A stretch of 61,436 bases of DNA, taken from NCBI GenBank assembly GCA_041500265.1, contig JBGQLU010000002.1, positions 1-61,436 of the forward strand, in the 5' to 3' direction. The notes beneath the pieces were generated by a model. The model was not told the DNA's origin and did not search any database. It worked only from the letters and a program-made list of their open reading frames with translations. Position 1 is the stretch's first letter. Each line of letters begins with the position of its first letter. A program made the translations under genes and the position numbers. This document shows, piece by piece, positions 2,891 to 61,017 of this stretch. The stretch is from Acidobacteriota bacterium. Lineage in GTDB: Bacteria > Acidobacteriota > Polarisedimenticolia > Polarisedimenticolales > DASRJG01.

Positions 2891-2902
2891 ACTGGGGTCC
2901 CG

Positions 2903-18300: not shown

Positions 18301-18397
18301 CGACCTCGTAGACGAGCGCACAGCCTCCGCTCAAGGTGAACAGGAGGGCTACGAGGGCGAACGAAGGTGGGAGCGGGCGGGCTTCGGACGACGTCAT
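15332..18397 (-). CDS. fused MFS-like / spermidine-synthase-like / TPR protein (paralog 2)
   Basis: 1021 aa. LFTLSGGCALVYEVVWSRLLVEVFGVTAFAVSTVLVAFMGGMAAG closely parallels the N-terminus of the 9604 gene. VCVVGLGAGITAG...YDVISAHP...PGGIMCQF block, then a TPR tail. Confidence 0.8.
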   Translation of the reverse strand: MTSSEARPLPPSFALVALLFTLSGGCALVYEVVWSRLLVEVFGVTAFAVSTVLVAFMGGMAAGAAAFGRRAARVGRPLRVFALLEAGVGAYALVLPALLSGVDRVYAAVYPSLADAFFLRSAVRFVLCLAVLLVPTALMGATLPALGQSLLRKAEGVGRGVALLYFVNTFGAAAGCLLSGFVLIPALGLRGTTLVAVLGNAAVAVAALLLDRRSPGSEPTLAAGPAARTVSEAGGETPLAWLHLVAFGSGMAALALEVAWFRVLVLVFGSTVYSFSAMLAVFLLGLALGSLAIGPLGDRTRFPVRLLVLCQAAAGVAALLGYLAVDAMPGLFLWFLGSSGMDFAGMTWAKFLISILVLLPPALAFGATFPLVVRLAASRGGAVGTAIARVYAWNTAGAIAGSFCAGFLLLPTVGSAMALKAVAGVALALAFTGLLAEGGPIRPRWALPCGLALVVTAAILVFAPAWDMRVVGAGAYRDPEHFFDASGRVILGQVVADREMLSVVEGYNETAIVYRTPEGKSLSVNGSVTASDRLEDRMAQKLLGHIPMALHAGPVRKVCVVGLGAGITAGVMGLYAPERLTVVELEAGVLKAGALFDVENHGVLRHPALDLRVDDGKNFLKMTRERYDVISAHPNIPALTGSGALYSEEYFRACRDRLAPGGIMCQFAPVWHLPTGDLRVILRTFSSVFPNVRVFAVGTSLVALGSVDPFPPVDQAELARRLARPEVAGDLSGIGVRGPLELLSFFQLDDAAVRRFAGDAALNTEDRPRLEYSAPRSAFTATTGPNLKALSALRPDADARAKILGIPEPDRPSFVALAAGCDATVQAQVLAGEHQIAEALFLATPVARVGNRFAQNLAATLSGEVGVAYLRAGNFGEARAAFANALEFEPDRIDALLGLGEADLHLGTLDEAAEALERAQQLQPDRAGTLYRLGLVRQAQGRTADAEALYRKAVERVPTLSVPRVLLGRLLLDSGRPREAVAQLDEAVRLGEAAPDVLRARDEARTRASSAPESDGSPSRR

Positions 18398-20914: not shown

Positions 20915-21505
20915 TCAACGGTTCCGCTCTTTTTCTTTGGGGGGGGCCTCGAACGACCGCCGGAGCCTCCCCCGGGCCAGCCCGAGGTGGCGGCGGACGG
21001 TGATCGAGGTGATCCCGAGGGCCCGGGCGACCGCTCCCGTCTCCAAACCCTCGATCTCGCGGAGCACGAAGATCGCGCGCTCCCGCTCGGTGAGGGTCTC
21101 GAGCGCCGCTTCGAGCCTCCCCTTCAGCTCCGCCTGATCCGCGTTTTCCGCCGGCCCGGGATGAGGGTCTCGAGCCCCCGACGCCGCCTCGGTCCAAGGG
21201 ACCTCCGGACCGGAGTCGGTCGCCCGGCGCCTGCGGTGGTCGTGGGCCGCGTTGACCGTCATCCGGTAGATCCACCCCTCGAACGACCCTCCCGGCCGGT
21301 ACCCCTTCAGGTGGCGGAAGACCCGGATGAAGACCTCCTGCGCGACGTCCTCGACGTCGCTGGGGGCCACTCGCAGGTAGCGCAGGACCCGGAGGACGCG
21401 CGCTTCGTGGCGGAGGAGCAGCCCCTCGAACGCCCGTACGTCGCCGGCGCGGGCGGCGGCGACCAGAGACTCGTCCGTTGCATCCGGCTCCGGAGACCGT
21501 GCCAC
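20915..21505 (-). CDS. ECF-type RNA polymerase sigma factor (sigma-70 family, group 4)
   Basis: 196 aa. Region 2 (EDVAQEVFIRVFRHLKGYRPGGSFEGWIYRMTVNAAHD) and region 4 HTH (ERERAIFVLREIEGLETGAVARALGITSITVRRHLGLARGRL). GTG start. Confidence 0.88.
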   Translation of the reverse strand: MARSPEPDATDESLVAAARAGDVRAFEGLLLRHEARVLRVLRYLRVAPSDVEDVAQEVFIRVFRHLKGYRPGGSFEGWIYRMTVNAAHDHRRRRATDSGPEVPWTEAASGARDPHPGPAENADQAELKGRLEAALETLTERERAIFVLREIEGLETGAVARALGITSITVRRHLGLARGRLRRSFEAPPKEKERNR

Positions 21506-21514
21506 CCGTGACCT

Positions 21515-24500
21515 CTAGAAGGGACTCTTGTTCCCCCGCGCATCCACCGCCAAGACCGAATAATACTGGGTGGCGGCGGCCGGAGTGATCTCCTTCGAGG
21601 TTGCGGTGACGGACGTCAGGAGCGGAACCGCGCCGTCCCGGATATTGGCGCGGGAGAACGGCGTCGAGCGGGCATAGATCTCGTAGTGGTCGATCTTGAC
21701 CGGGGCTCCATTGCCGGCCGGATCGAAGACACGGGTCACCGCCGGCCACGAGAGCACGATGTTCCCGGGGGTGGTGCCGGACTTCGCCTCGGTGAGCGGG
21801 TCGGGCCCGCTCGGGAGCTGGTTCCCCAGCCCGCCGGGGTTCCCGCTCACGTCGATCGCGCGCACCAGGTAATACCCCGGCGTGCCGCTCCCGAGGGCGC
21901 CGGCGTCGGTGAAGGTCGGGGTCGCCGGCGTGCCGATACGGTTGGCGAGCGCCGGAAGGAAGGTCGGGGTCGTCCCTCGGTAGACCTCGTAGTTGGCGAC
22001 CGTCGCCGGCTTCCCGTAGATGTCGGTCGTCACCGCGCCCCAGGTCAGAACCACGTCCGATCCGTTCTTCCTCAAACGCAGATCGGCGATGAACGCCGGT
22101 GACTTCACCCCGCGAACGAACGTGGGGGTGGCGAATTTCTCCTGGGAGTACGAGGAGGTGTGCCCCGACGTGTTGGTGGCGGTGATCGCGACGTAGTAGG
22201 TCGTGCCGTTCGACAGCCCCTGGAGGACAAACGACGTGAGCTTGCCCACGCCGACGGTCGTCGTATAGACCCCCGGCGCGATCCCGTAGTTGACCGTGTA
22301 GTTCTTGAGGTCGCTCTCCGGGCTGGCGTTCCATGCGAGGTTGAGCTTCGAGCTCGTTTCGGGATCGGTCACCGTGAGGCCGGTCGGAGCCGCCGGAGGG
22401 TTGGGATTGAGCGGTGTCGCCTTGACGCAGTCGGGACCGTTGACCGCGCAGTCGCTGTTGAAGTTCGACCAGCGGCTCTCGAACCCCTGCGAGTCCAGCG
22501 CCACGACGTAGTACTGGTACGTGGTGGCGTTGACGACGCCGAGATCCGCGAAGGCGGTCCCGCCGACCGGCGCTCCGTTCGCCTTCGTGTACGGAGTCGA
22601 GTTGATGTCGGGGGTCCGGTAGATGTCGTAGGTCGCCCCGGTGGTGGAGGAGGCGGTCCACGACAGGTCCACCCTCGCGTTTCCCGCGACGGCCGCGACG
22701 TTCTTCGCCGGACCGACCGCCGGAAAGACGAGGTCGGTCACCGGGTCGCCCATCAGGATGAAGCTCTGGCAGTACTCGGTCGATCCCTGCCCGCACAGCA
22801 TCTGGAGGGTGTCGAGGACCGGGACGTCGATCGTCCGCAGCTTCTCGGGCCCAAACAGATCGTTCCACAGGACGTCGGTCACCGCGTGTCCGACGAAGTT
22901 GAACGACAGCCCGGAGGGCGAGAAGACGGCCATCGCTCCACCGCCACTGCGCTTCAGCCAGTCCTCCCCCATCGACCGGGTCGCGGTCGTGTGGAAGCCG
23001 CCGGTCAGGCAGTCGTCGGCCAGGAGCCAAGGGTACTTCGCGCCGCTGCTGCCGTTGGTCAGCGAATCGGTGTCGGTCTTGATCCAGATCGAGTCGTCCG
23101 ACCAGATGTCGAAGTTTCCGTGCCCCTCGAACTGCATGATCGACGCCCCGTCGGAGACGACGTTGCCGTTGACGGCCGATCGGATGTCGTTCTTCATCTG
23201 GGCGGTGTTGCAGACCTGCGTATTGATGTTGCAGTAGTCGGAGAAGTAGCGGAGCTTCTGGTCGGTGTGCGGGGGGCGCTTCAGATACGACTCGGCGGCG
23301 TCGTTGGTGGCTTCGAACTCCAGGGAGGCCGACACGTCGATGATCCCTTGGGAATCCCGGTGCCCGCGATCGGACACCAGCAGCGCGTGACGCCGCCAGT
23401 TCCCCGCCGGCGGGCTCTGCTGGTAGCTCAGCAGCTTCTGAAAAACGGTGTTCGCCTCGACGTCGTCCCTCACGGGAACGCGGGCGACCACCAGGTCGGC
23501 GAGCTGGTCCCCGCCGGAGACCGCGGCCATGACGTTGTCGCTCGCGTAGTAACCCAGTTGAGGGTCGTCCAGGAACATGATCTGGGTCGGGATGAAGCTC
23601 CCGTTGGTCGTCCCCGCCTTGTAGTCGTAGGAGCCGTCGCCCAGGAGGAGAACGAACGCCGGCTTCGGGTCGGCCCATCCTTCTCCGGGGGTGGTCGAGG
23701 TCACCCAGCGGAGGAAGTTCTTGATCGCCAACGGACCGGGGAGCCCGTCGTTGAACTCGTCCTGGACGTCCTCGATCATCGCGATCTTCGAGGTGATCCC
23801 TTTCGACTGGTGGTAGGCGAGCAGGTTGTTGAGGGTCGTCCGCGCGGCCGAGCCCGCGGCGCCGAGCGTCGTCGGGTGCGCGATGACGATCAGGTCGGCC
23901 TGGTTCGCGTTGTTCTTGAGGTCCGAGACGGTGTCGGTGGTGAAATCGGGATCGGCGGGAATCGACACCGCACCGGCGCCGGCCACCACGAACCGGCGGG
24001 ACGTGCCGTCGGGGAGCGCGGGATCGTTGTCCACCCGGAACCGGATCGTGAACGGACCGGCCCCCGTGACCGTGGCGCCGGTCAGGCGGACCGACGAGAC
24101 GACGCCGGTCGCGCCGACACGTCCGGTGATCTCGTAAACCTCTGGGGCGGAATTCGTCAGCCCCGAGACGATGAACTCGGCGTCTCCGTCCGGCCAGTCG
24201 AAGGTCAGCGTGTCCCCCGAGGCCTGGAACGAGCGGCGGTACCGGATCTCGATCCAATCGAGGATGAACTGATTGGACACCCCCGACACCGGGAGCGCAT
24301 CGAGCACCACGAGCGCCGGATCGGTGAGCCCCGGCCCCGAGCCCGGGTAGGTCCAGTTGAAGTCGTGCGTGTAGAGCGTCCGCCCGTCGAAGGTCCCGTT
24401 GTCGTTGTTCGTGGCAAGGACCAGCGCCCCGCTCGTCTCGAGCGTCACCCGGCTCTGGTGGTCCGGATTCACCGTGTCGCTTTCGGTGATCCCTCGAACC

Positions 24501-26005
24501 TTCACCAGGACCTCCGCGGGGAGCGTGCCCGAGGCGAGACCGGGAAGGGGCACGCTGTCGGTGCGTGACGCCGGCGATCCTCCCGCGATCAGCGTCGGAA
24601 TCCAGTACCAGGGGTCCGCCGCTCCCAAGGGTCGCCACCCCGTCGGCGAATCGACTTCCTGGTGCGAGACCGCGCCGAAGTTCGTGGGGGGGACTCGCAC
24701 GTTGGTCGGGGTGACGTCGCGCAAAGGCATCCGCGAGCGGGAACCGGTCTCGACCGACAGGAAGTAGACGTTCTCGTCCGTGAAGTCGCGCGCCTCGTAG
24801 ATGTCGTTGTTCGTGTTGGGGAGATCGGTGTTGAGAACCGTCTTGGGCTCGTCGTCCAGCGCTTGCCCGTAGAACTGCACCCAGTCGCCGGCGTCGAGGA
24901 GGTTGTTCGCGTTGACGTCCTGAATCCGCAGGGGGACCTCGACCCCGCGGTTCATGAGCTTCCAGCTCGACAGAGCCTGCGACGTGAATCCCGTGCCGTT
25001 CATGCGCGTGAAGTCGAGCCGCACGACGCCGTTCTGGCGGATGCGGATCCGGTAGAGCGGACCGGAGGCTGGGGCCGCGGGGGACGCCGCCGCTGGGGCC
25101 TGCGGCGCCAGCGCGCCGATCCTGAAGGTGGTCCCCTGCGCGTAGTTCACGAACGCGTTGCGGTACACGGGCTCGAACCGCGAATCCGGAACGGGCTCGG
25201 CGCGCGCGAACGTGTCGCCGTCGAAGTGAACGATCACCTCGAACGAGCGCGTGACCCGCAGCCCTCCCAGGCGCGGATCGAATCGGACCGGAGCGAGGTG
25301 GACCTCGACGTAACGTTGATCCCTCAGGACGCCGATCTCCCCGAGCCGGGCGATCGCCTCGGGAAAAACCCTGCTCCCCTCGTAGATCTCGCGGTCCTCG
25401 ATGCGCTCGTCGCGGATCTGAGCGCCGGCGGCCGGGCGATCCTGCGCCGCGCGCGCGTCGACTGCGGTCTCATCGGCCTCGCCCGGGACCTCCCCGACGC
25501 GCCGGGACACCGGCCGCGGCCGAACGCCCGGGAGCACCTCGTCCGTCCCTGGAACGATCTCCAGCCGAGGGGTCGTTCCCGGCGGGATCGCGACGCGGAT
25601 CGTTCGTGACGGAACTTCCGGAGCTCCGGATTGGCGTTGCTGGTCGCCGAATCCGGCCAGCTCGAGGCGGGTACCGTCCGTGGTCGGCACGAGCGAGAGC
25701 GCCGGAGGGGAGACACGGAAGGCGAACTTCGGTTCGCCCTGCACGTCTCCGACCGCCTGGAGCACCGGTGGCGGCGAGCCCAGGGACTCCCCGACGCCGA
25801 GCGCGATCAGCAATCCCCAGGCGAGCCCACGGACCGGCGCGAACGGTCGCTGCAAGAGACGGCGGGATCGCTGGCGGGGGTGGGGCAAGGTTTGGCTCCG
25901 CTGCCGGGCGCGACGCCTCCTGCCCGCCTCCCCCAGGAAGGACCGCGCCCAACCTCCAAAGCCTACGGTGAAAGGAAGGGGGCGGCAACCCGGGGCCACG
26001 GTCAT
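21515..26005 (-). CDS. large secreted gingipain-like cysteine peptidase (family C25-like) with C-terminal Fn3-type repeats
   Basis: 1496 aa. C25-like core ...ADLIVIAHP...FVLLLGDGSYDYK...ARVPVRD... with a His/Cys dyad context (MQFEGHGNFD ... LLADDCLTGGF). Several Fn3-like modules follow (LSWTASS...YDIYR, LAWNASP...YTVNYG, LTWGAV...YEVYRG). ATG 26005 forms an ATGA overlap with the upstream stop. Confidence 0.8.
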   Translation of the reverse strand: MTVAPGCRPLPFTVGFGGWARSFLGEAGRRRRARQRSQTLPHPRQRSRRLLQRPFAPVRGLAWGLLIALGVGESLGSPPPVLQAVGDVQGEPKFAFRVSPPALSLVPTTDGTRLELAGFGDQQRQSGAPEVPSRTIRVAIPPGTTPRLEIVPGTDEVLPGVRPRPVSRRVGEVPGEADETAVDARAAQDRPAAGAQIRDERIEDREIYEGSRVFPEAIARLGEIGVLRDQRYVEVHLAPVRFDPRLGGLRVTRSFEVIVHFDGDTFARAEPVPDSRFEPVYRNAFVNYAQGTTFRIGALAPQAPAAASPAAPASGPLYRIRIRQNGVVRLDFTRMNGTGFTSQALSSWKLMNRGVEVPLRIQDVNANNLLDAGDWVQFYGQALDDEPKTVLNTDLPNTNNDIYEARDFTDENVYFLSVETGSRSRMPLRDVTPTNVRVPPTNFGAVSHQEVDSPTGWRPLGAADPWYWIPTLIAGGSPASRTDSVPLPGLASGTLPAEVLVKVRGITESDTVNPDHQSRVTLETSGALVLATNNDNGTFDGRTLYTHDFNWTYPGSGPGLTDPALVVLDALPVSGVSNQFILDWIEIRYRRSFQASGDTLTFDWPDGDAEFIVSGLTNSAPEVYEITGRVGATGVVSSVRLTGATVTGAGPFTIRFRVDNDPALPDGTSRRFVVAGAGAVSIPADPDFTTDTVSDLKNNANQADLIVIAHPTTLGAAGSAARTTLNNLLAYHQSKGITSKIAMIEDVQDEFNDGLPGPLAIKNFLRWVTSTTPGEGWADPKPAFVLLLGDGSYDYKAGTTNGSFIPTQIMFLDDPQLGYYASDNVMAAVSGGDQLADLVVARVPVRDDVEANTVFQKLLSYQQSPPAGNWRRHALLVSDRGHRDSQGIIDVSASLEFEATNDAAESYLKRPPHTDQKLRYFSDYCNINTQVCNTAQMKNDIRSAVNGNVVSDGASIMQFEGHGNFDIWSDDSIWIKTDTDSLTNGSSGAKYPWLLADDCLTGGFHTTATRSMGEDWLKRSGGGAMAVFSPSGLSFNFVGHAVTDVLWNDLFGPEKLRTIDVPVLDTLQMLCGQGSTEYCQSFILMGDPVTDLVFPAVGPAKNVAAVAGNARVDLSWTASSTTGATYDIYRTPDINSTPYTKANGAPVGGTAFADLGVVNATTYQYYVVALDSQGFESRWSNFNSDCAVNGPDCVKATPLNPNPPAAPTGLTVTDPETSSKLNLAWNASPESDLKNYTVNYGIAPGVYTTTVGVGKLTSFVLQGLSNGTTYYVAITATNTSGHTSSYSQEKFATPTFVRGVKSPAFIADLRLRKNGSDVVLTWGAVTTDIYGKPATVANYEVYRGTTPTFLPALANRIGTPATPTFTDAGALGSGTPGYYLVRAIDVSGNPGGLGNQLPSGPDPLTEAKSGTTPGNIVLSWPAVTRVFDPAGNGAPVKIDHYEIYARSTPFSRANIRDGAVPLLTSVTATSKEITPAAATQYYSVLAVDARGNKSPF

Positions 26006-27924: not shown

Positions 27925-29825
27925 CGATGGAACTCGCGCATCAGATCGGCAAACGCGGGGTCTCCCCGGACGCTCCGCAAATCCGGGTCGGTCTGGAGGC
28001 TGTCCCAGCTCCGGTAGCCGGCGCGGATCGCCCGCCGGAGGTAATCGACGCTCCCCTTCACGTCCCCCGTGAGCGCCCGCATGCACGCGATGTCGTAGAG
28101 AAGGTCGTAGGACCCGGGGCGCGAGGACACGACCGCCTCCCAGAGGCGCGCGGCCTCCGCGGGTTCCTGGCGGTCGAACGAATGGCCGAACCAGTGGAGG
28201 GCCTCCGGAGCACACGGATAGTGCGCCACCGACTCTTCGAAGCGGGCCTTTCCCCTCGGCCGAAGCGTCCCGCCGCTGTTGTTGATCCCCCACTCGAGCG
28301 TCGCGGCAAGGTTCAGAGGATCCAGCGCGAGCGCTGCCTTGAAATGCGGGATCGCGGCGACCAGACCGCCGCGGGCCGATTCCCACCTCGCCGCCCAGAC
28401 TTCTTTCGCGATGGTCGCGCACTCGTCGCGCGGGCCGCAGTCGCGACCGGCGTCGGGAGCCTGCTCGATCTTGATGCCGCGCTTTTCCAGCAGCGGCGCG
28501 ACCGTCTCAAGTGGCACCGACCTCGTAGGGATCTTCGAACGGCCCAATACAGCCTCTTTCAAGGACGCCACCTCCGGCGCACCGGCGGCGACCGCCGTGC
28601 CATCCAGGTTGCGGCTCTCCTCCATCAGTCCGACGCCGATCCGAAGAGTGTGGCGCAAGCCGCAGGTCCACGCCTTCCAACCCATCTGGTCGAGGGGAGC
28701 GGTGGACCACGCGAAGATCGTGCGGTCCTTGGGAATCCCCGCGGCGAGGTCCACGCCCTCGGAACCAGAAAGCTCGACTCCCCCGGCGCTCGCGAGCGTG
28801 ACCGCCACGTCCGGCCCCCACGCCATTCCCGCAGGGGCCGCCTTGCGCCTCTCCGGAGCCGCCCGGTAAACGAGCGGCACCCGGACCGCGTTCTCGCTCG
28901 GCGAGAACCCCGGACCCGGGATGCGGCTCCCCTTCTCGGAGACGTCGCCATAGGTCGCGGACCAGAGGATCTCGGCGCCCTCGAGCCGGGAGAGCGACTG
29001 CAGGCCGGTCAGAAGTTGATCGAGCGCCTGGTCTGTAGTGCCGATGCGCTGGTCGAGCTCTGTCCCCTCGACGGAGGCGCCGAACAACCCCGGCACCGCG
29101 GTGCAGGGCTCGCCGAAATGCAACCAGACGAAAGCGCGGTCCGAGGGCGCCACCGACCGAAGCCAGCCGAGGGCGTGCTCCACGACCTTGCCGGCCGGGA
29201 GTGGGCGCACGAGGCGCTGGGGGGTTCCGAAGGGGATCCCTTCCGGCTCGTCCACGACCTGGAATCCGCGAACGACGCCGCTCGCCGACTCGAGAAACGG
29301 GGTCCCGGGAAACGCGGCGGTCTTGAAACCCGCCCGTTGGAGGCTCTCCGCGAGCAGCGGCGTCTTCTCGCCGAGCGGAGTGTAGATGTCGTCCACGACA
29401 CCGTGGCGATCGGCTCCCAACCCGGTGAGCATCGATGCGACCGCAGGGCGGGTCATCGGGTCCGCCGTCCAGCCTTGAAGCGCGACCCCTCCCGCCGCGA
29501 CGAGCCGGTCGAGACCGGGCGTCGCCACGGCACCGCCGTACAGCTTGAGGCGTGCGGGCGGTATCGCGTCCACCGTGACCAGGACGATGGTCGATGCGCC
29601 GCGGGACGCGACAGGGAGCGCCGCGGGAAGCGCGGCCGGGAGTGCGGCCGAGGGCGCAGTCGGGGGAGCGGCGGGGGCATTGGGCGTTGGAGCGGGCTCG
29701 GCTGACGGCGCAGTCGGGGGAGCGGCCGAGGTCGCGGCCGGACGCCCGCAAGCTGCCGCGAACGCGAGCGCCGCGACACACAAGACCCGGGTTCGCCAGT
29801 ACGTCCTCCCGACCTTCACCGTCAT
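27921..29825 (-). CDS. sulfatase-like (alkaline phosphatase superfamily) lipoprotein with Pro/Ala-rich linker and C-terminal TPR-like domain
   Basis: Start trimmed to ATG 29825, with GGAGGAAGGAG upstream. Signal plus lipobox ...ALAFAAAC, a 50-aa P/A/T/S linker, then IVLVTVDAIPPARL..., nucleophile-region DPMTRPAVASMLTGLGADRHG, and a TPR-like tail. Confidence 0.75.
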   Translation of the reverse strand: MTVKVGRTYWRTRVLCVAALAFAAACGRPAATSAAPPTAPSAEPAPTPNAPAAPPTAPSAALPAALPAALPVASRGASTIVLVTVDAIPPARLKLYGGAVATPGLDRLVAAGGVALQGWTADPMTRPAVASMLTGLGADRHGVVDDIYTPLGEKTPLLAESLQRAGFKTAAFPGTPFLESASGVVRGFQVVDEPEGIPFGTPQRLVRPLPAGKVVEHALGWLRSVAPSDRAFVWLHFGEPCTAVPGLFGASVEGTELDQRIGTTDQALDQLLTGLQSLSRLEGAEILWSATYGDVSEKGSRIPGPGFSPSENAVRVPLVYRAAPERRKAAPAGMAWGPDVAVTLASAGGVELSGSEGVDLAAGIPKDRTIFAWSTAPLDQMGWKAWTCGLRHTLRIGVGLMEESRNLDGTAVAAGAPEVASLKEAVLGRSKIPTRSVPLETVAPLLEKRGIKIEQAPDAGRDCGPRDECATIAKEVWAARWESARGGLVAAIPHFKAALALDPLNLAATLEWGINNSGGTLRPRGKARFEESVAHYPCAPEALHWFGHSFDRQEPAEAARLWEAVVSSRPGSYDLLYDIACMRALTGDVKGSVDYLRRAIRAGYRSWDSLQTDPDLRSVRGDPAFADLMREFHR

Positions 29826-29873
29826 GGACGACTCCTTCCTCCGAATTACATCCAGAAGACCCCAAAATGTATC

Positions 29874-31871
29874 ATGCGCGATCTCGCCCGCCAGCGACGC
29901 GGGAGGGCGGAGGACGGCGCTGTGCGCTCGAATGGAGGCGCCCTCGGGGGAGCCCTGCTGATCGTCGCGGTGACGCTTTTCGCGTACGCCCCCGCGCTGC
30001 GCGCCGGGTTCAACTGGGACGACGCCCGGTACGTCACCCAGAATCCGATGCTCGAGGACGCGCACGGCCTGTGGCGGATCTGGTTCGACAGTTCCGCGAC
30101 CGTTCAGTACTACCCGCTGACCCACACCACGTTCTGGCTGGAACGGCACCTGTGGGGGCTTCGCCCCTTCGGCTTCCACCTCGTCAACGTCCTCCTCCAT
30201 GCCGGCTCGGCGATCCTGTTCGCCTCGATCCTGCGAACGCTGCGCGTGCCGGGCGCGTGGCTCGCGGCGGGGATCTTCGCCTTGCACCCCGTGCACGTCG
30301 AATCGGTGGCCTGGGTGACCGAGCGCAAGAACGTCCTGTCCGGCATCCTCGCCTTAGGCGCCGCCCTGGTCTACCTCCGCTCCGCGCGGCTCGACGCCGA
30401 GGCGGAAGAGCGATCCGGCTCGCTTGGCGTCCTGTCGATGATCCTCTTCTGCGGTGCTCTCTTCGCCAAGACGGTGGCCGCGACGCTTCCGGTCAGCCTC
30501 GCCCTCGTCCTCTACTGGAAGCGAGGCCGATGGGAGCTGCGCGACCGCGTCTATCTCCCCGCCATGGTGGCCTGCGCCGCGATGCTGGCGCCCTTGACCG
30601 CGTGGCTCGAGAGGCACCAGGTGGGGGCCCAGGGTCCCGAGTGGAACCTACCCCCGGCGGAGCGCGTCGTGATCGCGGGCCGGGCCTTCTGGTTCTACCT
30701 CGGGAAGCTCGCGTGGCCCCATCCGCTGATCTTCACCTACCCGCGCTGGACCGTGAACGCGGGGTCGGCGGCATCGTACGCGGCGCCGGCCGCGGTCCTC
30801 GCCCTGCTCGCGGGACTCTGGCTGCTCCGCCGACGCCTCACGACAGGTCCGTTCGTCGCCGCCGCGTACTTCCTCCTCACGCTGTTCCCCGCGCTCGGCT
30901 TCGCGAACGTCTTCCCGATGCGTTACTCCTTCGTCGCCGACCACTTCCAGTACCTCGCGAGCCTCGGACCGATCGCGGTCGCCGCGGCGGGGGCCGTCGC
31001 CGGATGGGCCGCGCTCGCGAGGAGAGCGCCGGGGGGCGCGGCCCGGCGCGCCGGCGCCGTCGCGGCGGGGCTCCTCTTGGCCATTCTCGGAACGCTCACA
31101 TGGAGCCGCGCCCACGCGTTCCGGGACGAGGAGACGCTCTGGCGCGACACGCTGGCGAAGAACCCCGACGCCTTCATGGCCCACAACAATCTGGCCCTCA
31201 TCGCCGTGCGGAGCGGCGATCTGACCACGGCCGCGGAGCATTTCGAGCGTTCGCTCCGCCTCAAGCCCGACTACGCCTCCGCGCTCAATCTCGGCATCGT
31301 GCTCGCGCGCCAAGGGCAAGACGAGAGGGCGATCGCGATGTACCGCGAGTCGCTGCGCGAGAAGCCGGACGAGATCGGCACCCACCTTCTGCTCGGCGAG
31401 GCGCTCCTCGAGAAGGGGGAGCGCGACGAGGCGCGTACCCACTTCGAGGCGGCGGTGCGCCTCGGACCGCAAGACGCCGGGGCGCTGAACGCGCTCGGGA
31501 GCTTTCTGCTGGAATCGGGGCGGGTCCGCGAAGCCACCGCGCTCTACGTGCGCGCGGTCGCGGCACTCCCCGACAGCCCCGTCGCCCGGCTGAATCTCGG
31601 GATCGCGCTGGCGCGCGACGGACGGGACGACGAGGCCCTCGCCCAGCTCCGAGCGGCCATGAGCCTCGCCCCCGCCGACCCCGACGTGCGTTACAACCTC
31701 GGCGCCCTTTTCGTCCGCACGGGGCACGCCGTGGAGGGTCGCGAGCAACTCTCGGAGGCCGTTCGCCTTCGGCCCGATTTCCCCGAAGCGGTGCAGGCGC
31801 TCGAGCTCAGCCGCCGGCGCCGTCCACGAACGTGCGGAGCTTCTCGTAAACGTCGAGCGAGACCAAGTTGA
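29874..31871 (+). CDS. TMTC-like polytopic membrane protein with C-terminal TPR repeats (putative protein O-mannosyltransferase-type GT-C)
   Basis: FAYAPALRAGFNWDDARYVTQNPML motif in the first loop, about 10 TM segments, then clear TPRs (AHNNLALIAVRSGDLTTAAEHFERSLRLKPDYASALNLGIVLARQG...). Alternative start GTG 29922 has GGAGGA 7 nt upstream and may be the true start. Confidence 0.7.
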   Translation: MRDLARQRRGRAEDGAVRSNGGALGGALLIVAVTLFAYAPALRAGFNWDDARYVTQNPMLEDAHGLWRIWFDSSATVQYYPLTHTTFWLERHLWGLRPFGFHLVNVLLHAGSAILFASILRTLRVPGAWLAAGIFALHPVHVESVAWVTERKNVLSGILALGAALVYLRSARLDAEAEERSGSLGVLSMILFCGALFAKTVAATLPVSLALVLYWKRGRWELRDRVYLPAMVACAAMLAPLTAWLERHQVGAQGPEWNLPPAERVVIAGRAFWFYLGKLAWPHPLIFTYPRWTVNAGSAASYAAPAAVLALLAGLWLLRRRLTTGPFVAAAYFLLTLFPALGFANVFPMRYSFVADHFQYLASLGPIAVAAAGAVAGWAALARRAPGGAARRAGAVAAGLLLAILGTLTWSRAHAFRDEETLWRDTLAKNPDAFMAHNNLALIAVRSGDLTTAAEHFERSLRLKPDYASALNLGIVLARQGQDERAIAMYRESLREKPDEIGTHLLLGEALLEKGERDEARTHFEAAVRLGPQDAGALNALGSFLLESGRVREATALYVRAVAALPDSPVARLNLGIALARDGRDDEALAQLRAAMSLAPADPDVRYNLGALFVRTGHAVEGREQLSEAVRLRPDFPEAVQALELSRRRRPRTCGASRKRRARPS

Positions 31872-38230: not shown

Positions 38231-40153
38231 TCACGCGAGCCAGGTCTCCCGCCAGCGCTGAAACATGAAGAGGGTGAACAAGGGCTTGCGGTGATCCCGC
38301 GTGCCTTCGAGGTGCTCGTTCACGAGGGTCCTCACCGCTTCGGGCCGGAAGAGCCCCTCGTTCCGCAGGCGGCCGGGATCGAGGGCGGAGAGAAGCTCGC
38401 CGCGCATCCCTTCCCGGAACCAGCGGCCGATCGGCAGGGCGAACCCCCTCTTGGGTCGGCTCAACACATCACCGGGGAGAATCCCTCGGAGCGCTTCCTT
38501 CAGCACGTGCTTGAGCCGCCCGTGGCGCACCTTGAGGCTTCCCGGAATCGCGAACGCCTGCACGACGAAGTTGAAGTCGAGCAGCGGAGCGCGGGCCTCG
38601 AGCGACACCGCCATCGTCGCGCGGTCGAGCTTCGTCAGGATCCCCTCGGCCAGGTACCCCTTCGCGTAGAGGTACGCATCGCGGTTGACGGGATCGAGCT
38701 CGCGCGCCCGGCCGTACTGCGCCCGGATCTCGTCGTAGAGCGTGGGCAGGTCGAGGACCGCCCGCGCCTCCGGCGTGAGGAGCCCCGGCAGCTCCTCCGG
38801 CACGAACGCGCCGAGCCACCGCCAGAGGCGCTCGTCGTCGCGCGCCTTGGCACCGCGAAGGAATTGGTTCGCCTTGAAGTCGAGCGAGAAGTAGCCGAAC
38901 TCGGGGCGGAGCCGGCGCGCGGCCGGCCGGACGAGCGCCCGGTCGGCCCAACCCGGCACCATGCTCGCGTAGAGGCGGGCCAGGCGGAGGGCCCGGAACG
39001 TCGGGTAGCCGGCGAAGAGCTCGTCGCCGCCGTCGCCGGAGAGCGCGACGGTCACGTGACGCCGCGTGAAGCGCGCCAGGAGATAGGTCGGCAGGATCGA
39101 GGCGTCCGCGAACGGCTCGTCGAGGAACCCGCAGACCGGCGGGATCGCCGCGCGTGCCGCCTCGACGTCGAGGATCTCCTCGCGATGGTCGGTTCCGAGG
39201 CGGGAGGCGAAGGCGCGGGCGGCGGCGGACTCGTCGAAGCGCGGGTCGGTGAAGCCGATGGAAAAAGTCTTCACGCGGTCGTGGCCCAGCAGGTCCACCA
39301 TCGTGGTCGTCATCGCGGAGCTGTCGATCCCTCCCGAGAGGAACACGCCCAGGGGAACGTCCGCGACGAGGCGGCGCTGGACGGCCTCCCGCAGCCCCTC
39401 GCGAATCGCCGGGCCCAGCTCGCGCGACGTGCGATCCGCCGAGGCCGAGGTGGTCCCGCCGATCGCGCCGATCGGGTCCCAGTACGTGCGCGTGGTCAGC
39501 TCGCCGGTGTCGAGGCCGAAGGTGAAGGTGGAGGCCGCGGGGAGCTTCCGCATCCCTTCGTAGATCGCGTGGGGCGCGGGCACGTGCTCGAAGAGGAGGT
39601 AGAGGGCGGCGGAGCGGACGTCGAGGGTGCGGCGGACGGCGGGGTGACGAAGGAGCGCCTTCGCCTCGCTGGCGAACGCGAAGAACGTGCCGTCGTGGAC
39701 GAGGTAGAGGGGCTTTTCTCCCATCCGATCCCGCGCGCCGAACAGGAGGCGGCGCGGCCTGTCGTGGATCACGAACGCGAACATGCCGTTCAGGTGATCG
39801 ACGCATCGCTCGCCCCAGGCGGCGTAGGCGTTGAGGATCGTCTCGGTGTCCGAACGCGTCCGCGCCGGGTGCCCCAGACCCGTAAGCCGCGAGTTCAGCT
39901 CCCCGTAGTTGTAGATCTCGCCGTTGTAGACGATCGAGAGCGTGCCCGCCGCGTCGCGCATCGGCTGGCCGCCCCCCTCCCGGTCGATGACCACGAGCCG
40001 CCGATGCCCGAGCGCGACGCTCGCTTCGGTCAGGTACCCTTCCGCGTCCGGGCCGCGGTGGGTCAGGGCGGCCGTCATCCGGCGCAGGACGTCCTCGCCC
40101 TCGACCGGAGGCGCCGGCGATCCCGCCCGCGCGAACCCCACGATTCCACACAT
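38231..40153 (-). CDS. asnB: asparagine synthase (glutamine-hydrolysing) family amidotransferase
   Basis: 640 aa. MCGIVGF N-terminal nucleophile Cys2, the glutaminase domain (YNGEIYNY), and PP-loop SGGIDSS in the synthetase domain. Confidence 0.9.
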   Translation of the reverse strand: MCGIVGFARAGSPAPPVEGEDVLRRMTAALTHRGPDAEGYLTEASVALGHRRLVVIDREGGGQPMRDAAGTLSIVYNGEIYNYGELNSRLTGLGHPARTRSDTETILNAYAAWGERCVDHLNGMFAFVIHDRPRRLLFGARDRMGEKPLYLVHDGTFFAFASEAKALLRHPAVRRTLDVRSAALYLLFEHVPAPHAIYEGMRKLPAASTFTFGLDTGELTTRTYWDPIGAIGGTTSASADRTSRELGPAIREGLREAVQRRLVADVPLGVFLSGGIDSSAMTTTMVDLLGHDRVKTFSIGFTDPRFDESAAARAFASRLGTDHREEILDVEAARAAIPPVCGFLDEPFADASILPTYLLARFTRRHVTVALSGDGGDELFAGYPTFRALRLARLYASMVPGWADRALVRPAARRLRPEFGYFSLDFKANQFLRGAKARDDERLWRWLGAFVPEELPGLLTPEARAVLDLPTLYDEIRAQYGRARELDPVNRDAYLYAKGYLAEGILTKLDRATMAVSLEARAPLLDFNFVVQAFAIPGSLKVRHGRLKHVLKEALRGILPGDVLSRPKRGFALPIGRWFREGMRGELLSALDPGRLRNEGLFRPEAVRTLVNEHLEGTRDHRKPLFTLFMFQRWRETWLA

Positions 40154-41413: not shown

Positions 41414-41530
41414 TCAGCTCTGAATCGGGCCTGCGGCGCAAGCGGTGTCCGTGGACTTCGTGCACGTCACGGCCCGGGCTTCGAGCTTCTCCGTGTGGAT
41501 GATTGCTGGCTTCTCGTAGATCTTCTTCAT
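41414..41530 (-). CDS. 38-aa candidate RiPP precursor peptide (not in ORF track)
   Basis: Minus-strand ATG 41530 preceded by GGGGGAGG. Translation: MKKIYEKPAIIHTEKLEARAVTCTKSTDTACAAGPIQS, stop TGA 41416-41414. 32 of 38 codons end in G/C, matching the genome coding bias. It lies 126 nt downstream of the rSAM gene on the same strand, with a terminator about 100 nt further on. Confidence 0.65.
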   Translation of the reverse strand: MKKIYEKPAIIHTEKLEARAVTCTKSTDTACAAGPIQS

Positions 41531-41617
41531 GAGCCTCCCCCTGAATTGGAGTTCTATCTGGTCGTAGCTACAAGTCAGTTTCACCCTGATCGGGCCATCC
41601 GCCCGAAACCGGCAGAT

Positions 41618-41646
41618 GATATACGCTGCCGCGTCGGGGTTTTCAA
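41618..41646 (-). promoter_or_regulatory. sigma70-like promoter candidate dedicated to the precursor peptide
   Basis: Minus strand reads TTGAAA, a 17-nt spacer, then TATATC, starting 11 nt after the rSAM stop. These AT-rich hexamers stand out in GC-rich sequence, and the predicted 5' UTR is about 80 nt. Confidence 0.4.
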
Positions 41647-41656
41647 CCGGAGTTTC

Positions 41657-42736
41657 TCAACCCTTGTTGCCGCCTATTTGCAGCAACTCGTAAGCCCGTT
41701 TCACCGCCCGGGCGTTGATGTCGACCTGAGGATAAATCGCCAGCGGGTCCCCCATCTGCGTTTCGGCCACACCGAGGCAGAAGGTCATGTACTGGCCGTT
41801 TTCGTGCCGACTGATGCGGTTCTTCGCTTCGATCGACAGGTCCCGGACCTCGTTGAGCACGGGGGACGACCCCCAGATGTCGCTGAAGCTATTGATTTCC
41901 AAGATGTTACCGATCTTGCGCCGAAACGCCACGCACGGGAGGATGTTCCCGTAGGGGTCGATCGTGAACCCGGAGCGGCCGGTGCCGCAGTTGGCTTCGG
42001 CCCCTTCCGACGCGCAGTGGTTGGCCCGCGGGGGGAGCTTTCCCCGGTGGAGCTCCATGTACCATTCCCCCCAGTACTTCTCGAGGAATTCGGCACTGGG
42101 CCGGAGCGCGAGCGGGTCGAGGTTGCCGTCGTCCTTCGGGGTGATCACCGCATCGAAGGTCACGAAAACGCCCAGCCGGTCGCCGATGTCGCGGATTTCG
42201 AACAACTCGTCCTGGTTGAGCTTGGTGATCGGGCACTTGAGGTTGATCTTGATCCCCGCCTCGACGAGGTTTTCGAGTGCCTTGACGGTTTTGGCGAACG
42301 ATCCCTTGATCCGCGTCAGCGCCTCGTGGGTTTCCGGCCGGGCGCCGTGAATCGAGACCTCGACCTCCATCGGCTTCAGCTCGCGGACCTTGGCGAGCAT
42401 CGCCGGATCGGCGAGCAGGTACCCGTTGGTGTAGATCCTGAGCGCCATCCCCAGCCGCCGCACCTCGCCGGCGATCTTGAAGAAGTCCCTGTGGCAGAGC
42501 GCTTCGCCTCCGGTCAGCGTCATGTACAGGACGCCGAAGTCGGCGATCTTTCGAAGGGCTTCGAAGACCTGGGGGGTCGTTAGCTCCTTCTGTCCGGTGG
42601 GCGAGTTGTAGCAAAACGTGCAGAGGTGGTTGCACCGGAAGGTCAGCTCGAACTGGGCGGACAGCGGGATCGCGTGAGCGAACGCCGAGTCCATGATGTG
42701 CTGATACGGGCTGACCCGTTCCGTCGCGCCACTCAT
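41657..42736 (-). CDS. radical SAM peptide-modifying enzyme with C-terminal Cys-containing auxiliary (SPASM/twitch-like) domain
   Basis: 359 aa. FELTFRCNHLCTFCYN (CxxxCxxC), GGEAL SAM-binding motif, and a C-terminal ...NHCASEGAEANCGTGRSGFTIDPYGNILPC...MTFCLG. ATG 42736 forms an ATGA overlap with the PqqD-like gene. Confidence 0.88.
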   Translation of the reverse strand: MSGATERVSPYQHIMDSAFAHAIPLSAQFELTFRCNHLCTFCYNSPTGQKELTTPQVFEALRKIADFGVLYMTLTGGEALCHRDFFKIAGEVRRLGMALRIYTNGYLLADPAMLAKVRELKPMEVEVSIHGARPETHEALTRIKGSFAKTVKALENLVEAGIKINLKCPITKLNQDELFEIRDIGDRLGVFVTFDAVITPKDDGNLDPLALRPSAEFLEKYWGEWYMELHRGKLPPRANHCASEGAEANCGTGRSGFTIDPYGNILPCVAFRRKIGNILEINSFSDIWGSSPVLNEVRDLSIEAKNRISRHENGQYMTFCLGVAETQMGDPLAIYPQVDINARAVKRAYELLQIGGNKG

Positions 42737-43041
42737 GCCCCGACCTCCGCCGACCGTTCGTCCAGCATGCCGTGACGCGCGAGGTCGCTCACGAAGTCGC
42801 GCGCGTCGGCGGCCGCCGCCTCGGGGGCGACGTCGAATTCGTCCGCGATGACGGCGGCAATTTCATCGACCGTCCGCGTCCCGTCGAGGAGTCCGAAGAT
42901 ACGGATGGCGGCCGGATTGAGCACTTTGACCTCAGCCTTGCCGGCGAGCACGACGAGGCCTCCCTCGTCCGCAACCGCGCGAAACGCGCTGTCGGGATGC
43001 CGCCGGGGGCGGTTCGGAACCGCCGGAGTCACCTCGAACAT
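42733..43041 (-). CDS. PqqD-family peptide chaperone (RRE domain)
   Basis: ...FRAVADEGGLVVLAGKAEVKVLNPAAIRIFGLLDGTRTVDEIAAVIADEFDVAPEAAAADARDFVSDLARHGML is the typical PqqD pattern. ATG 43041 has GAGGAA 6 nt upstream. The alternative in-frame ATG 43062 lacks an SD. Confidence 0.8.
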   Translation of the reverse strand: MFEVTPAVPNRPRRHPDSAFRAVADEGGLVVLAGKAEVKVLNPAAIRIFGLLDGTRTVDEIAAVIADEFDVAPEAAAADARDFVSDLARHGMLDERSAEVGA

Positions 43042-43167
43042 GGGGGGTTCCTCGCGTGCCATGTCAACAAGGACCGAAGGGGTCCTCTTTGGAGCCCTTA
43101 GTTTACGGTCAAGTCCCGGGATCGGCAATCCCGGAGGGAAAGTGCGGGTCCGCGGCCTTCTCCCACG

Positions 43168-45027
43168 TCATCTCAGGTACCCGAGGCTCTTCAATCTCTC
43201 CACCATCTCCGGGTCGTAATCGCTGGTGCCCGCCTCCGCCGCCGACCCTCGACGCCCCCATGTGGCGATCGGCGGCGGGGGCGGCGGGGCCGATTCGAAG
43301 CAACGGGCGGGGGCCCGCCCCCTCATCTCCCGGCTGGCCGGAAGCCCGAGGACCCTGAGGACGAGGGGGGCCACGTCCAGATCCCCGATCGGCGGCCCCA
43401 CGCAGGCGGGTGAGACACCCGTCGAGACGGCGGCGACGAACCCTTCGGTCTCCCGGGTCGCGCTCCTGCCCGGATCGGCCACGACGACGACCGCCCAGTC
43501 CGGCCCGCGCTCGGCGAGCCTCGAGAAGATCGCGGCGTCCAGCCAGCGGACGTACGCCTCGATCGCTTGGGCCTCGACAAGACCGGACGCCTCGCCGGTC
43601 GTCGCCCCCGCCGCCAAGCGGCCGCGCAGGATGTCGAGACCCGGGAGATACACGAACGAGGCGCGCACCGATTGGTCCTCGAGGAGCGTCTGCGCCGCGC
43701 CCCACGCGAACGCGTCGATCAAGAAGGATTCCCAAGCGATCGACGCCGTTCGCTCCGGAAGTCCCGCGAATCGAAGGTCGAACTCGCGGCGTATCTCGGG
43801 GCGCTTGCCGGCGAAGTCGGACTTCAACCTGAGGAACAGCCCTTCCGGCCGGATGTCGCGGTCCTCGCGACCGTCGCTGAGGAGCTTGGGAAGCACCCGG
43901 TCGGAGACGAGGTAGCCGGATTCGGCGTCCCCCGCGATCCCCCGCGCGGGCCAGCTCGCCCAGAAGTTGACCGACGACGACGGCGCGACGAGGCCCGCCA
44001 TCTCCCACAGCGCGCGCATCCGCCGTCCCGCGCCCGTGGCCGGCACGGTACGCACCGGAAGCAGGAACCGAAGAGCCGCGACCGCCCCGGTGGAGGCGTG
44101 CATCGCGAGCGGGGTGGCGACGCCGGGCAGCCTCGTCGCCCCGGCCCCACGGATGCCGTGGTCTTCGACCCGCATCCCCGTCGTGATGGTCGTCCAGACT
44201 TCGGCCGGCTCGAGGCCGGGGTCGCGATGCTTGGGGAACAGCGCTCCGCGGGCGAACGTCGCGAGGAGGTTCTCGGTGGCGCCCGCGGGCGTCAGGGCGG
44301 GGACGAGAGCCCCGTCGAGCCCGTCCACGCACACGACGAGCGTAGATCGCTCCACCCGGGCCGCGCTCCATGTCGACGGCGGGATCGCACCCGCGGAGGG
44401 AGATGCGGCGGGCACGACGAAGAAGGCGAGCGCGATCGGGACGAGCACCAGCAGCACGATCGCGACGGGGCGCCGGTTGCGGTCGGGGACCTCTCCGGTG
44501 CGTCCCACGATGCCCGCGAGGGAGACCAGGCCCGCGAGCCAAGCGACGAGCGCGCCGGCCGCCAGCGCGCCCGCGAGCAGGAGGAGCGTCACCCCGAGCG
44601 GGGCCCGCGGTCGCCCTCGGGCCTGCAGGATCACCAGGTATAAAAGGAGGGGCGCCGCGACGAGCAGGCCGGCGCGCAGGGCATCGCTCGGCCGCGCCCC
44701 GCGCCGGCGGGCCCATGCGACCGCGATCGCGCCGGCCCCGGCATCGAGCCCGAAGAGGACCGCGGCCGCCAGCGCCGCGAAGTAGACCCAGAGCACCACG
44801 GCGTCCCGCGGGCCGAGCAACGGCCGGTTGGCGGCGACCGTCGACGCCGCCACGAGCCCACCGAGGAGGGGCGCGCCCAAGAGCGCCGCCTTCGCGCTCG
44901 CCCGCAGCACCGTGCGTGCCGCTCCACCGGGCGCCGCGAGATCGCGGAGGAGGAAGCGCTCGATCCGCCCCTGCAGGTAGCCGCGCTCGACGAGCTTTCG
45001 CCGGACCTCTTCGTACCGCTCGGTCAT
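43168..45027 (-). CDS. membrane-anchored alkaline-phosphatase-family protein (type I phosphodiesterase/nucleotide pyrophosphatase-like)
   Basis: 619 aa. About 5 N-terminal TM helices, then LVVCVDGLDGALV...WTTITTGMRVEDHGIRG...FVYLPGLD..., and the C-terminal tail ...MVERLKSLGYLR (a similar LASLGYL occurs in the sulfatase-like gene at 26002). Confidence 0.7.
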   Translation of the reverse strand: MTERYEEVRRKLVERGYLQGRIERFLLRDLAAPGGAARTVLRASAKAALLGAPLLGGLVAASTVAANRPLLGPRDAVVLWVYFAALAAAVLFGLDAGAGAIAVAWARRRGARPSDALRAGLLVAAPLLLYLVILQARGRPRAPLGVTLLLLAGALAAGALVAWLAGLVSLAGIVGRTGEVPDRNRRPVAIVLLVLVPIALAFFVVPAASPSAGAIPPSTWSAARVERSTLVVCVDGLDGALVPALTPAGATENLLATFARGALFPKHRDPGLEPAEVWTTITTGMRVEDHGIRGAGATRLPGVATPLAMHASTGAVAALRFLLPVRTVPATGAGRRMRALWEMAGLVAPSSSVNFWASWPARGIAGDAESGYLVSDRVLPKLLSDGREDRDIRPEGLFLRLKSDFAGKRPEIRREFDLRFAGLPERTASIAWESFLIDAFAWGAAQTLLEDQSVRASFVYLPGLDILRGRLAAGATTGEASGLVEAQAIEAYVRWLDAAIFSRLAERGPDWAVVVVADPGRSATRETEGFVAAVSTGVSPACVGPPIGDLDVAPLVLRVLGLPASREMRGRAPARCFESAPPPPPPIATWGRRGSAAEAGTSDYDPEMVERLKSLGYLR

Positions 45028-60888: not shown

Positions 60889-61017
60889 CGCGTCATCGTA
60901 GCGCGAACGACACACCGCCGTGTCCCGCCGGCCCGTCGGTGACGCGCCTCGCCCGTCCGAGGGCCGAATTCCCACACCTTTCGGCAGGCACGGCGCGTGC
61001 TAACCTCAGTTGTCGTC

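Follow-up and report, generated by a model that had tools for sequence, protein, structure and literature searches.

The 61,436-nucleotide stretch analyzed here (the window) is positions 1 to 61,436 of contig JBGQLU010000002.1, from a genome of an Acidobacteriota bacterium within the Polarisedimenticolales (GCA_041500265.1). On its minus strand, between 41414 and 43062, three co-oriented genes encode a PqqD-family protein of the RiPP recognition element (RRE) type, a radical S-adenosylmethionine enzyme (rSAM), and a peptide of 38 amino acids (Table 1). We read these genes as a cassette for a peptide made on ribosomes and modified after translation (RiPP), of an undescribed family that is vertically conserved in Acidobacteriota, and we put the probability of this reading at roughly 75%. 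The stop codon of the PqqD gene overlaps the start of the rSAM gene in a 4-nt ATGA that couples their translation, and 126 nt separate the rSAM gene from the ATG of the peptide gene at 41530, whose 38 codons carry G or C at the third position in 32 cases. An earlier note on this DNA, made from the sequence, had described the same three genes with their overlap, spacer, ribosome-binding site and third-position composition, all of which hold on rereading. Its statement that the small open reading frame (ORF) is absent from the program-made ORF list does not, since the list holds it as the tail of a 56-aa ORF with a GTG start (41414..41584). All homologs of the peptide begin at the methionine of MKK. 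For the PqqD gene, an alternative upstream start (TTG at 43128) is possible.

Table 1. Coordinates of the cassette, its expression signals and associated genes; positions refer to the window except in the last row, where they refer to the related loci named.
Feature	Position	Strand	Description
PqqD-family RRE protein	42733..43062	-	109 aa from ATG; PF05402 at residues 44-100
Radical SAM enzyme	41657..42736	-	359 aa; PF04055, PF13186; contains CNHLCTFC
Precursor peptide gene	41414..41530	-	38 aa, MKKIYEKPAIIHTEKLEARAVTCTKSTDTACAAGPIQS; stop codon 41416-41414
Shine-Dalgarno sequence GGGGGAGG	41534..41541	-	3 nt before ATG
Sigma-70-like promoter for peptide gene (predicted)	41618..41646	-	called by cross-locus conservation
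PorU-like C25 peptidase	21515..26005	-	1496 aa; propeptide_C25, Peptidase_C25 (PF01364, E 7e-59), fn3
ECF-type sigma factor	20915..21505	-	Sigma70_r2/r4_2; follows C25 peptidase
Membrane protein, frequent neighbor upstream of PqqD	43168..45027	-	619 aa; ends ...ERLKSLGYLR
Distant-relative precursors	L020 7283-7456 and 8898-9065 (-); L020 4573-4743; L021 4577-4738		PYExPA[IL]xWE leader, two-Cys core

The peptide alone is too short to be used as a homolog query, and an alignment profile of the peptides from nine loci was searched instead, which recovered 728 clusters (90% identity) at E≤1, all unnamed or labeled "hypothetical protein" in their source databases. An exact scan of genome contigs for peptide words found one species genome only, and the taxonomic breadth of the family comes mainly from metagenome proteins. 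The earlier note had proposed to look for loss or frame disruption of the small ORF beside orthologous enzymes; wherever the sequence of a related locus extends far enough past the rSAM gene, the ORF is there. In pairwise comparisons of nine distinct 38-codon genes, residues 12-21 (HTEKLEARAV) carry 0 nonsynonymous and approximately 170 synonymous codon differences. Change here is only synonymous, so selection acts on the protein, and this shows the 38-aa ORF to be a real, translated and strongly constrained gene. A short ORF conserved beside a maturase and held by protein-level purifying selection is what is expected of a RiPP precursor, and the peptide has no match among Pfam and NCBIfam models.

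We divide the peptide into a putative leader, residues 1 to approximately 21, with Y5-x-x-P8-x-I10 followed by HTEKLEARA, and a putative core at approximately 22-38, with C23-x-K25...D28...C31-x-x-G-P-I-Q-S38. Motif statistics were compiled over 134 distinct peptides of the family. The pattern Y..P.[ILV] occurs in all 134, which together with the purifying selection on the small ORF supports the leader-dependent rSAM/PqqD maturase that the earlier note had proposed. Exactly two Cys are found in 132 peptides, with a spacing of seven residues between them in 126 and a seven-residue tail after the second in 131. The position two residues after the first Cys is Lys in 129, the C-terminal residue is Ser in 131, and an Asp or Glu lies between the two Cys in all 134 (+4 in 89 peptides, +5 in 111). 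Conservation of the peptide exceeds that of the enzyme: sister rSAM proteins that share only 42-46% identity with that of the window are accompanied by the same peptide.

The precursor also appears to have its own promoter. A TTGAAA block (41646-41641) and a TATATC block (41623-41618; TATAAC or TATAAG in relatives) are separated by a 17-nt spacer, beginning 11 nt past the rSAM stop codon. In 13 of 13 aligned upstream regions the blocks TTGAAA and CGTATA[AT]C are retained within flanks that have otherwise diverged, and the sister loci L017 and L019 show the same two blocks. A consensus promoter scan found none here; the scanner demands T at the last position of the -10 hexamer, which is C in this case, and the call therefore rests on cross-locus conservation. 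GGGGGAGG or GGGGAGG likewise stands at the same position in 13 of 13 aligned loci. With a conserved predicted promoter of its own and a strong ribosome-binding site, the precursor could be made in excess over the enzymes. A search of the 126-nt spacer against Rfam gave no match at E≤1, and the idea of a riboswitch or other known RNA was dropped. The hairpins predicted past the peptide's stop codon and in the 5' untranslated region do not exceed shuffled sequence in stability (z = 0.8 and 0.5), and we claim no terminator or RNA element.

The PqqD protein matches PF05402 with 51.7 bits against a cutoff of 23.4 (E 1.1e-13), which places it among the PqqD-type RREs. In NCBIfam its top-scoring models, ScmD, PqqD and lasso PqqD, fall short of their cutoffs, and its homologs in related loci (76-105 aa) lie directly upstream of the rSAM gene. 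The rSAM protein matches PF04055 (E 4e-23), and its CX3CX2C motif, C35-N-H-L-C39-T-F-C42, is invariant in 32 homologs, as expected of the radical SAM superfamily, whose SAM-binding [4Fe-4S] cluster is held by this motif inside a partial TIM barrel. Four further Cys in the C-terminal domain (C241, C250, C268, and C320) are also invariant in these homologs, giving seven in all, in agreement with the Cys pattern that the earlier note had read. A full SPASM domain carries seven Cys in the order CX9-15GX4C-gap-CX2CX5CX3C-gap-C and binds two auxiliary clusters (PMC6231123), and a Twitch-type domain is a truncated SPASM with a single auxiliary cluster (PMC6231123, PMC10114670). Here, C250-X12-G263-X4-C268 corresponds to the first part of the SPASM motif, with C241 upstream and C320 downstream. 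The CX2CX5CX3C block, which binds the second auxiliary cluster (Aux II), is absent from all 32 aligned homologs, and the SPASM model PF13186 is matched weakly (29 bits) over profile positions 1-53 only. We regard the C-terminal domain as Twitch-like, with one predicted auxiliary cluster site, rather than as a full SPASM domain. The auxiliary domain that the earlier note did not recognize would thus be a known truncation, as in SkfB.

An AlphaFold2 (AF2) model of the enzyme (pLDDT 82) contains the rSAM barrel, a beta-hairpin (E257-259, E264-266) and C-terminal helices, and its beta/alpha core matches rSAM structures. A Twitch domain has a C-terminal fold of beta-hairpin and helix, and the positions of the four invariant Cys are those that it would predict. 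Among solved structures the best sequence match is SkfB (E 7e-18), followed by PqqE; Foldseek ranks SkfB (E 6.5e-14), BlsE, PqqE, SuiB, CteB, and anSME in this order, and the highest TM-scores to the model belong to anSME (0.66-0.68). No NCBIfam model reaches its cutoff on the enzyme, the best being StsB (103 bits, cutoff 625), GeoRSP (99, cutoff 400) and MftC (TIGR03962; 98.6, cutoff 265). The other curated thioether-synthase families score lower still (SkfB, TIGR04403, 76 against 300; AlbA, 75 against 850). The NirJ, AhbD, and MoaA models reach 93-99 bits, about as high as the peptide maturases, over the rSAM core only (residues ~29-190), whereas the StsB and MftC matches extend into the C-terminal domain (residues 29-304 and 23-304, respectively). 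The view of the earlier note that the system belongs to no named class is borne out, since neither enzyme reaches an NCBIfam equivalog cutoff and no family matches the peptide.

A search with the rSAM protein gave 496 matches at E<1e-20, mostly from metagenome-assembled genomes of Acidobacteriota (Polarisedimenticolaceae, Terriglobia), and each of the top 120 shares 67% identity or more. In a scan of 1.84 billion representative proteins, full-length relatives were found only at 45% identity or less; many of these likewise have just 3-5 C-terminal Cys, and the ten nearest scanned are unnamed. Three sister groups, with rSAM proteins 42-60% identical to that of the window, share both its synteny and its peptide family. 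One of their loci, L017, has two tandem precursor genes (6162-6446), a duplication seen in no other locus, with near-identical leader and first loop and with the tails PGGVLVT and PGGIAIT. The peptides of L018 and L019 end in AGGPVTS and AGPIQS, respectively. More distant relatives, with rSAM proteins approximately 36% identical, have precursors of 53-57 aa upstream of PqqD with the form ...PYEEPALLWEDDL...AC-N-K...C...S, that is, a PYExPA[IL]xWE leader, then C-x-K, 7-9 residues, a second Cys and a short tail. Two further paralogous precursors lie on the opposite strand in L020, and the distant precursors of L020 and L021 adjoin very large FG-GAP/PQQ-repeat proteins. The rSAM of L013, which at "52% identical" had been considered a divergent member, was rejected on translation as a frameshifted assembly or pseudogene; its frame (3000-4070) is broken by frameshifts, and the peptide gene downstream is intact.

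In addition, a kinase-like protein related to ScmC and HprK is encoded beside sister cassettes (L018 3157-4613 and L020 7522-8361), in L018 together with a small signal-peptidase-I-like protein. For some lasso precursors, phosphorylation of the C-terminal Ser by HPr-kinase-like enzymes is reported. The peptides of the family nearly always end in Ser or Thr, and C-terminal phosphorylation is therefore a lead for L018 and L020; no such gene adjoins the cassette of the window.

The usual gene order around the cassette is (uvrB) uvrC, an alpha/beta hydrolase, a polyprenyl synthase, a membrane protein of ~615 aa, PqqD, rSAM, peptide, a C25 peptidase of 1400-1500 aa, and an extracytoplasmic function (ECF) sigma factor, with sulfatase-family tetratricopeptide repeat (TPR) proteins nearby. 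In 11 loci a homolog of the C25 peptidase starts 30-115 nt past the peptide stop codon, and the sigma factor follows the peptidase also in L014, L015, L016, L018, and L019. The window copy of the peptidase reaches 171 bits (residues 313-1096) against a cutoff of 420 with NF033707, the model of the type IX secretion system sortase PorU, and is thus PorU-like rather than a member of that family. In the window, the C25 gene is displaced from the peptide by approximately 15 kb of glycosylation and sulfatase-like genes, which points to an insertion or rearrangement between the two. In tblastn searches of 21 other loci, neither the family 2 glycosyltransferase (GT2) nor the asparagine synthetase homolog (AsnB) of the window was found with the cassette. 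By this synteny, the glycosylation genes are a window-specific insertion and not part of the cassette, and the envelope-glycosylation island in which the earlier note had placed the genes is a peculiarity of this stretch. Approximately 20 contexts were inspected for an ABC exporter, a C39 peptidase or an immunity gene, and none was found.

The 619-aa membrane protein upstream of PqqD has homologs (40-61% identity) in the same place in L002, L013, L014, and L016 and is absent in L015. The window copy matches no Pfam or NCBIfam model, and a likeness to the alkaline phosphatase superfamily is seen only via the homolog in L018 (PF01663). Its terminal L-x-S-L-G-Y motif has a similar counterpart inside the sulfatase-TPR protein of L001. 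Tandem sulfatase-family and TPR proteins recur around the cassette (window 26002-30296, minus strand; L001 ~1480-3536). By our own reading of its translation, the sulfatase-like copy of L001 has T-L-P-S-H where sulfatases have C/S-x-P-x-R, and this protein may use a Thr nucleophile with no need of formylglycine maturation. We considered an anSME-like maturase serving the neighboring sulfatase-family proteins and set it aside, since PqqD and the peptide are the constant partners of the enzyme and the L001 neighbor reads T-L-P-S-H.

Three other minus-strand genes of the window were noted. A second, unrelated rSAM gene (6169-7242) belongs to the AmmeMemoRadiSam system (TIGR04337, 265 bits, cutoff 220). 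Positions 15332-18397 encode a protein of 1021 aa in which a spermine/spermidine-synthase domain is combined with an MFS-like membrane region and with TPR repeats at the C terminus; a homolog of this protein lies at the edge of L014. Finally, an 888-aa fusion (58309-60975) joins an amino-acid kinase and ACT domains to an Orn/DAP/Arg decarboxylase domain, resembling an aspartokinase joined to a DAP decarboxylase.

From the biochemistry of RREs and rSAM-dependent RiPPs, the PqqD protein would bind the peptide by its N-terminal Y-x-x-P-x-[ILV] segment and deliver the C-terminal half to the rSAM enzyme, which would cleave SAM reductively and abstract a hydrogen atom from a residue of the core. Our leading guess for the outcome, offered tentatively and by analogy, is one or two intramolecular thioethers from Cys sulfur to carbon, each with a loss of 2 Da. 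We favor it because the two Cys are invariant across the clade, the nearest solved enzyme makes a thioether, and an acidic residue always follows the first Cys by four to five positions. C23 and C31 would be the donors, and this Asp or Glu is a plausible acceptor. PapB forms thioethers between Cys and Asp or Glu in CXnD motifs with n = 0-6 (PMC9413430). The single predicted auxiliary cluster may be where the thiolate of the substrate is handled; the open Aux I site of CteB is ligated by a Cys of its substrate (PMC6231123). In most genomes the transcript probably continues into the PorU-like C25 peptidase and the ECF sigma factor. More speculatively, from adjacency and the residues available, the C25 peptidase is a candidate for cutting after the invariant Arg19 or Lys25.

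Several observations weigh against this account. Sequence similarity among rSAM enzymes predicts chemistry poorly (PMC10288494, PMC6231123), and we infer the modification itself by analogy only. The four invariant Cys of the auxiliary site may leave its cluster fully ligated, as in anSME or BtrN (PMC6231123), with no open site for a thiol. One peptide of L020 (...CGKIGGAGGPC...) has no acidic residue between its Cys, and a Cys-Asp link cannot therefore hold throughout the wider clade. The cassette contains no protease or exporter, and its connection to the C25 peptidase, which we infer from adjacency, is broken in the window, in L002 and in L013. In addition, conservation this high is unusual for a true leader, and the functional unit may be the entire 38-mer. 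Some of these points lend themselves to a different chemistry on the same cassette and substrate, such as a C-C or C-O cross-link involving Lys25, epimerization, or an anSME-like oxidation of Cys, with the two Cys serving as a disulfide or as metal ligands. The full ligation suggested by the auxiliary Cys, the top TM-scores of anSME and the distant relative that has no acidic acceptor would all suit such an outcome, as would a Lys at +2 that is as conserved as the Cys themselves (129 of 134) and the comparable matches to MftC, PqqE, SuiB, and EpeE, none of which forms thioethers. However, the two Cys are the most conserved feature of the core over the whole clade, the relative closest to the enzyme among solved structures makes a thioether, and the core offers no aromatic residue to the Lys-Trp, Tyr or cyclophane-type links that are known. 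We consider this alternative somewhat unlikely, although it deserves serious weight.

The function of the product can be weighed in the same manner. The product more likely serves the physiology or envelope of its producer than acts as a strain-specific bacteriocin, because the peptide is near-invariant, including its leader, while the enzyme drifts to 42% identity, because synteny with uvrC is kept, and because immunity and export genes are lacking. An ordinary secreted antimicrobial sactipeptide or ranthipeptide, as the earlier framing implied, would fit the combination of RRE, rSAM and Cys-containing precursor, the strong predicted promoter of the precursor, and the two tandem precursors with differing tails in one sister locus. 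It is nevertheless improbable, since bacteriocin cores usually diversify and this core hardly varies in more than 700 clusters, and since the locus is inherited vertically with housekeeping genes rather than being patchy or mobile and has neither exporter, C39 peptidase nor immunity gene in the contexts inspected. We give equally little credence to a cofactor made from the peptide, or a small factor for redox or metal binding, in the manner of PQQ or mycofactocin. The product would then not be a peptide natural product, and a few residues or the intact modified 38-mer would act as an intracellular prosthetic group. The near-invariance of the peptide across deep divergence of the enzyme speaks for it, as do a single-copy, core-genome-like locus syntenic with uvrB and uvrC, the lack of export, immunity and dedicated protease genes, and a W/Y-x-K-P-A-hydrophobic start resembling that of PqqA. 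However, neither PqqB/C/F- or MftD/E/F-like tailoring enzymes nor a candidate cofactor-dependent dehydrogenase are conserved alongside, the PqqE and MftC models score far below cutoff with no match to the PqqA model, and the conserved downstream partner is a C25 peptidase of secreted type. That partner suggests a further picture, which we also hold to be a long shot: a lineage-wide, vertically inherited, non-antibiotic peptide, functional as the whole 38-mer with its apparent leader, that is handed to the C25 enzyme and either feeds a circuit of the adjacent ECF sigma factor or builds a surface feature of acidobacterial cells. The handover could consist of Arg/Lys-specific maturation or of a sortase-like joining of the invariant C terminus to an envelope glycolipid, and, if true, would define a new category of rSAM-RiPP, namely, a housekeeping envelope or signaling peptide coupled to a C25 transpeptidase. 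Least credible of all, and very improbable, is a locus that is not of this kind, either a degenerate lasso cluster or a non-peptide rSAM of the AhbD, NirJ or MoaA sort beside an incidental small ORF. In lasso clusters, a B1 protein resembling PqqD goes with a cyclase resembling Asn synthetase, and the window has an AsnB homolog (38231-40153) two genes downstream; the non-peptide models score about as high as the peptide maturases. Yet these models cover the rSAM core only, and the peptide is adjacent in every locus. Synteny effectively refutes such a reading: AsnB and GT2 are absent from 21 of 21 related loci. A B2 protease of the transglutaminase type is lacking as well. Moreover, the AsnB homolog starts with MCGIVG, has a complete glutaminase domain and is a full glutamine-dependent Asn synthase, and the PqqD protein stays below the cutoffs of the lasso PqqD models (29 against 70 and 14 against 80).

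For the rSAM-RiPP cassette that we favor, a literature search that included Haft's SynChlorMet and GeoRSP systems found no paper on the acidobacterial family of rSAM, PqqD and 38-aa peptide. In abundance, Acidobacteriota rank with the foremost bacteria of soil, and their peptide chemistry is very little characterized. With two small enzymes, a 38-residue substrate and a peptide family of more than 700 clusters, the cassette is a clonable target for discovery. The compact enzyme with its discrete RRE and single predicted auxiliary cluster would also be useful for asking what Aux I alone adds to catalysis. Furthermore, the pattern of conservation is nearer to that of peptide-derived cofactors (PQQ, mycofactocin) than to that of bacteriocins, and identification of the product would thus establish a new family of RiPPs and might bring to light a physiological function that is conserved.

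Among known systems, the in silico GeoRSP and SynChlorMet (ScmC/D/E/F) systems of Haft resemble the cassette as uncharacterized combinations of PqqD-family proteins with short rSAM/SPASM enzymes. ScmD is the best NCBIfam match of the PqqD protein (37 against a cutoff of 100), and GeoRSP_rSAM is the second-best match of the enzyme. However, these systems differ in taxonomic range and neighborhood, and the peptide studied here matches no NCBIfam model. The PQQ system likewise combines a discrete PqqD chaperone, an rSAM enzyme and a very short, highly conserved peptide, and the alignment to PqqE takes in the CX12GX4C part of the auxiliary domain. PqqA carries W-x-K-P-A-F, which the Y-E-K-P-A-I start of our peptide resembles. 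In contrast, PqqE has two auxiliary clusters, its model TIGR02109 gives 75 bits against 381, and the PqqD model TIGR03859 gives 32 against 46. The PQQ pathway as such is not seen: the peptide does not match PqqA, lacks the Glu-X3-Tyr pair of the PQQ precursor and has no Tyr after the leader, and pqqB, pqqC, and pqqF are absent from the neighborhoods inspected.

PapB is reported to be an RRE-fused SPASM enzyme. In freyrasin biosynthesis it links Cys to the beta-carbon of Asp (or the gamma-carbon of Glu) within CX3D motifs of PapA (PMC9413430), and the peptides here have Asp or Glu at +4 or +5 from the first Cys in 134 of 134 cases. PapA has six repeated motifs, whereas here a single loop is bounded by two Cys, and no sequence relationship was found, with no search aimed at one. 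StsB, from a sactipeptide system of Streptomyces (StsB/StsC/StsA), and the mycofactocin maturase MftC are the top NCBIfam matches that span the C-terminal domain. StsB works with a discrete RRE protein, as proposed here, and in StsA Cys2/4/6 are linked to Gly11/13/15 (PMC10288494). Both StsB and MftC are annotated SPASM enzymes, whereas the enzyme of the window lacks the Cys block for a second cluster, and its peptide, which ends in G-P-I-Q-S, is like neither StsA nor MftA. MftA ends in GVY, and by score the enzyme stays well outside the mycofactocin family.

The closest relative by sequence and fold is SkfB (PDB 6EFN), the Bacillus subtilis sactisynthase for the sporulation killing factor, which has a Twitch-type C-terminal domain with a single auxiliary cluster and joins a Cys sulfur to carbon on a ribosomal peptide (PMC6231123). 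Only the rSAM core is alike, with 24% identity over query residues 15-196 in the alignment of the folds. The RRE is fused to the N terminus of SkfB, whereas the PqqD protein is separate here; the Aux I ligand pattern is CX33CXC in SkfB and another in our enzyme, and the precursors are unrelated. Taken against these systems, the kind of arrangement, an rSAM enzyme with a discrete RRE and a precursor, is already known, and the particular family is new and unnamed. What is unusual about it is the single (predicted) auxiliary cluster, the ultraconserved "leader," and the PorU-like neighbor.

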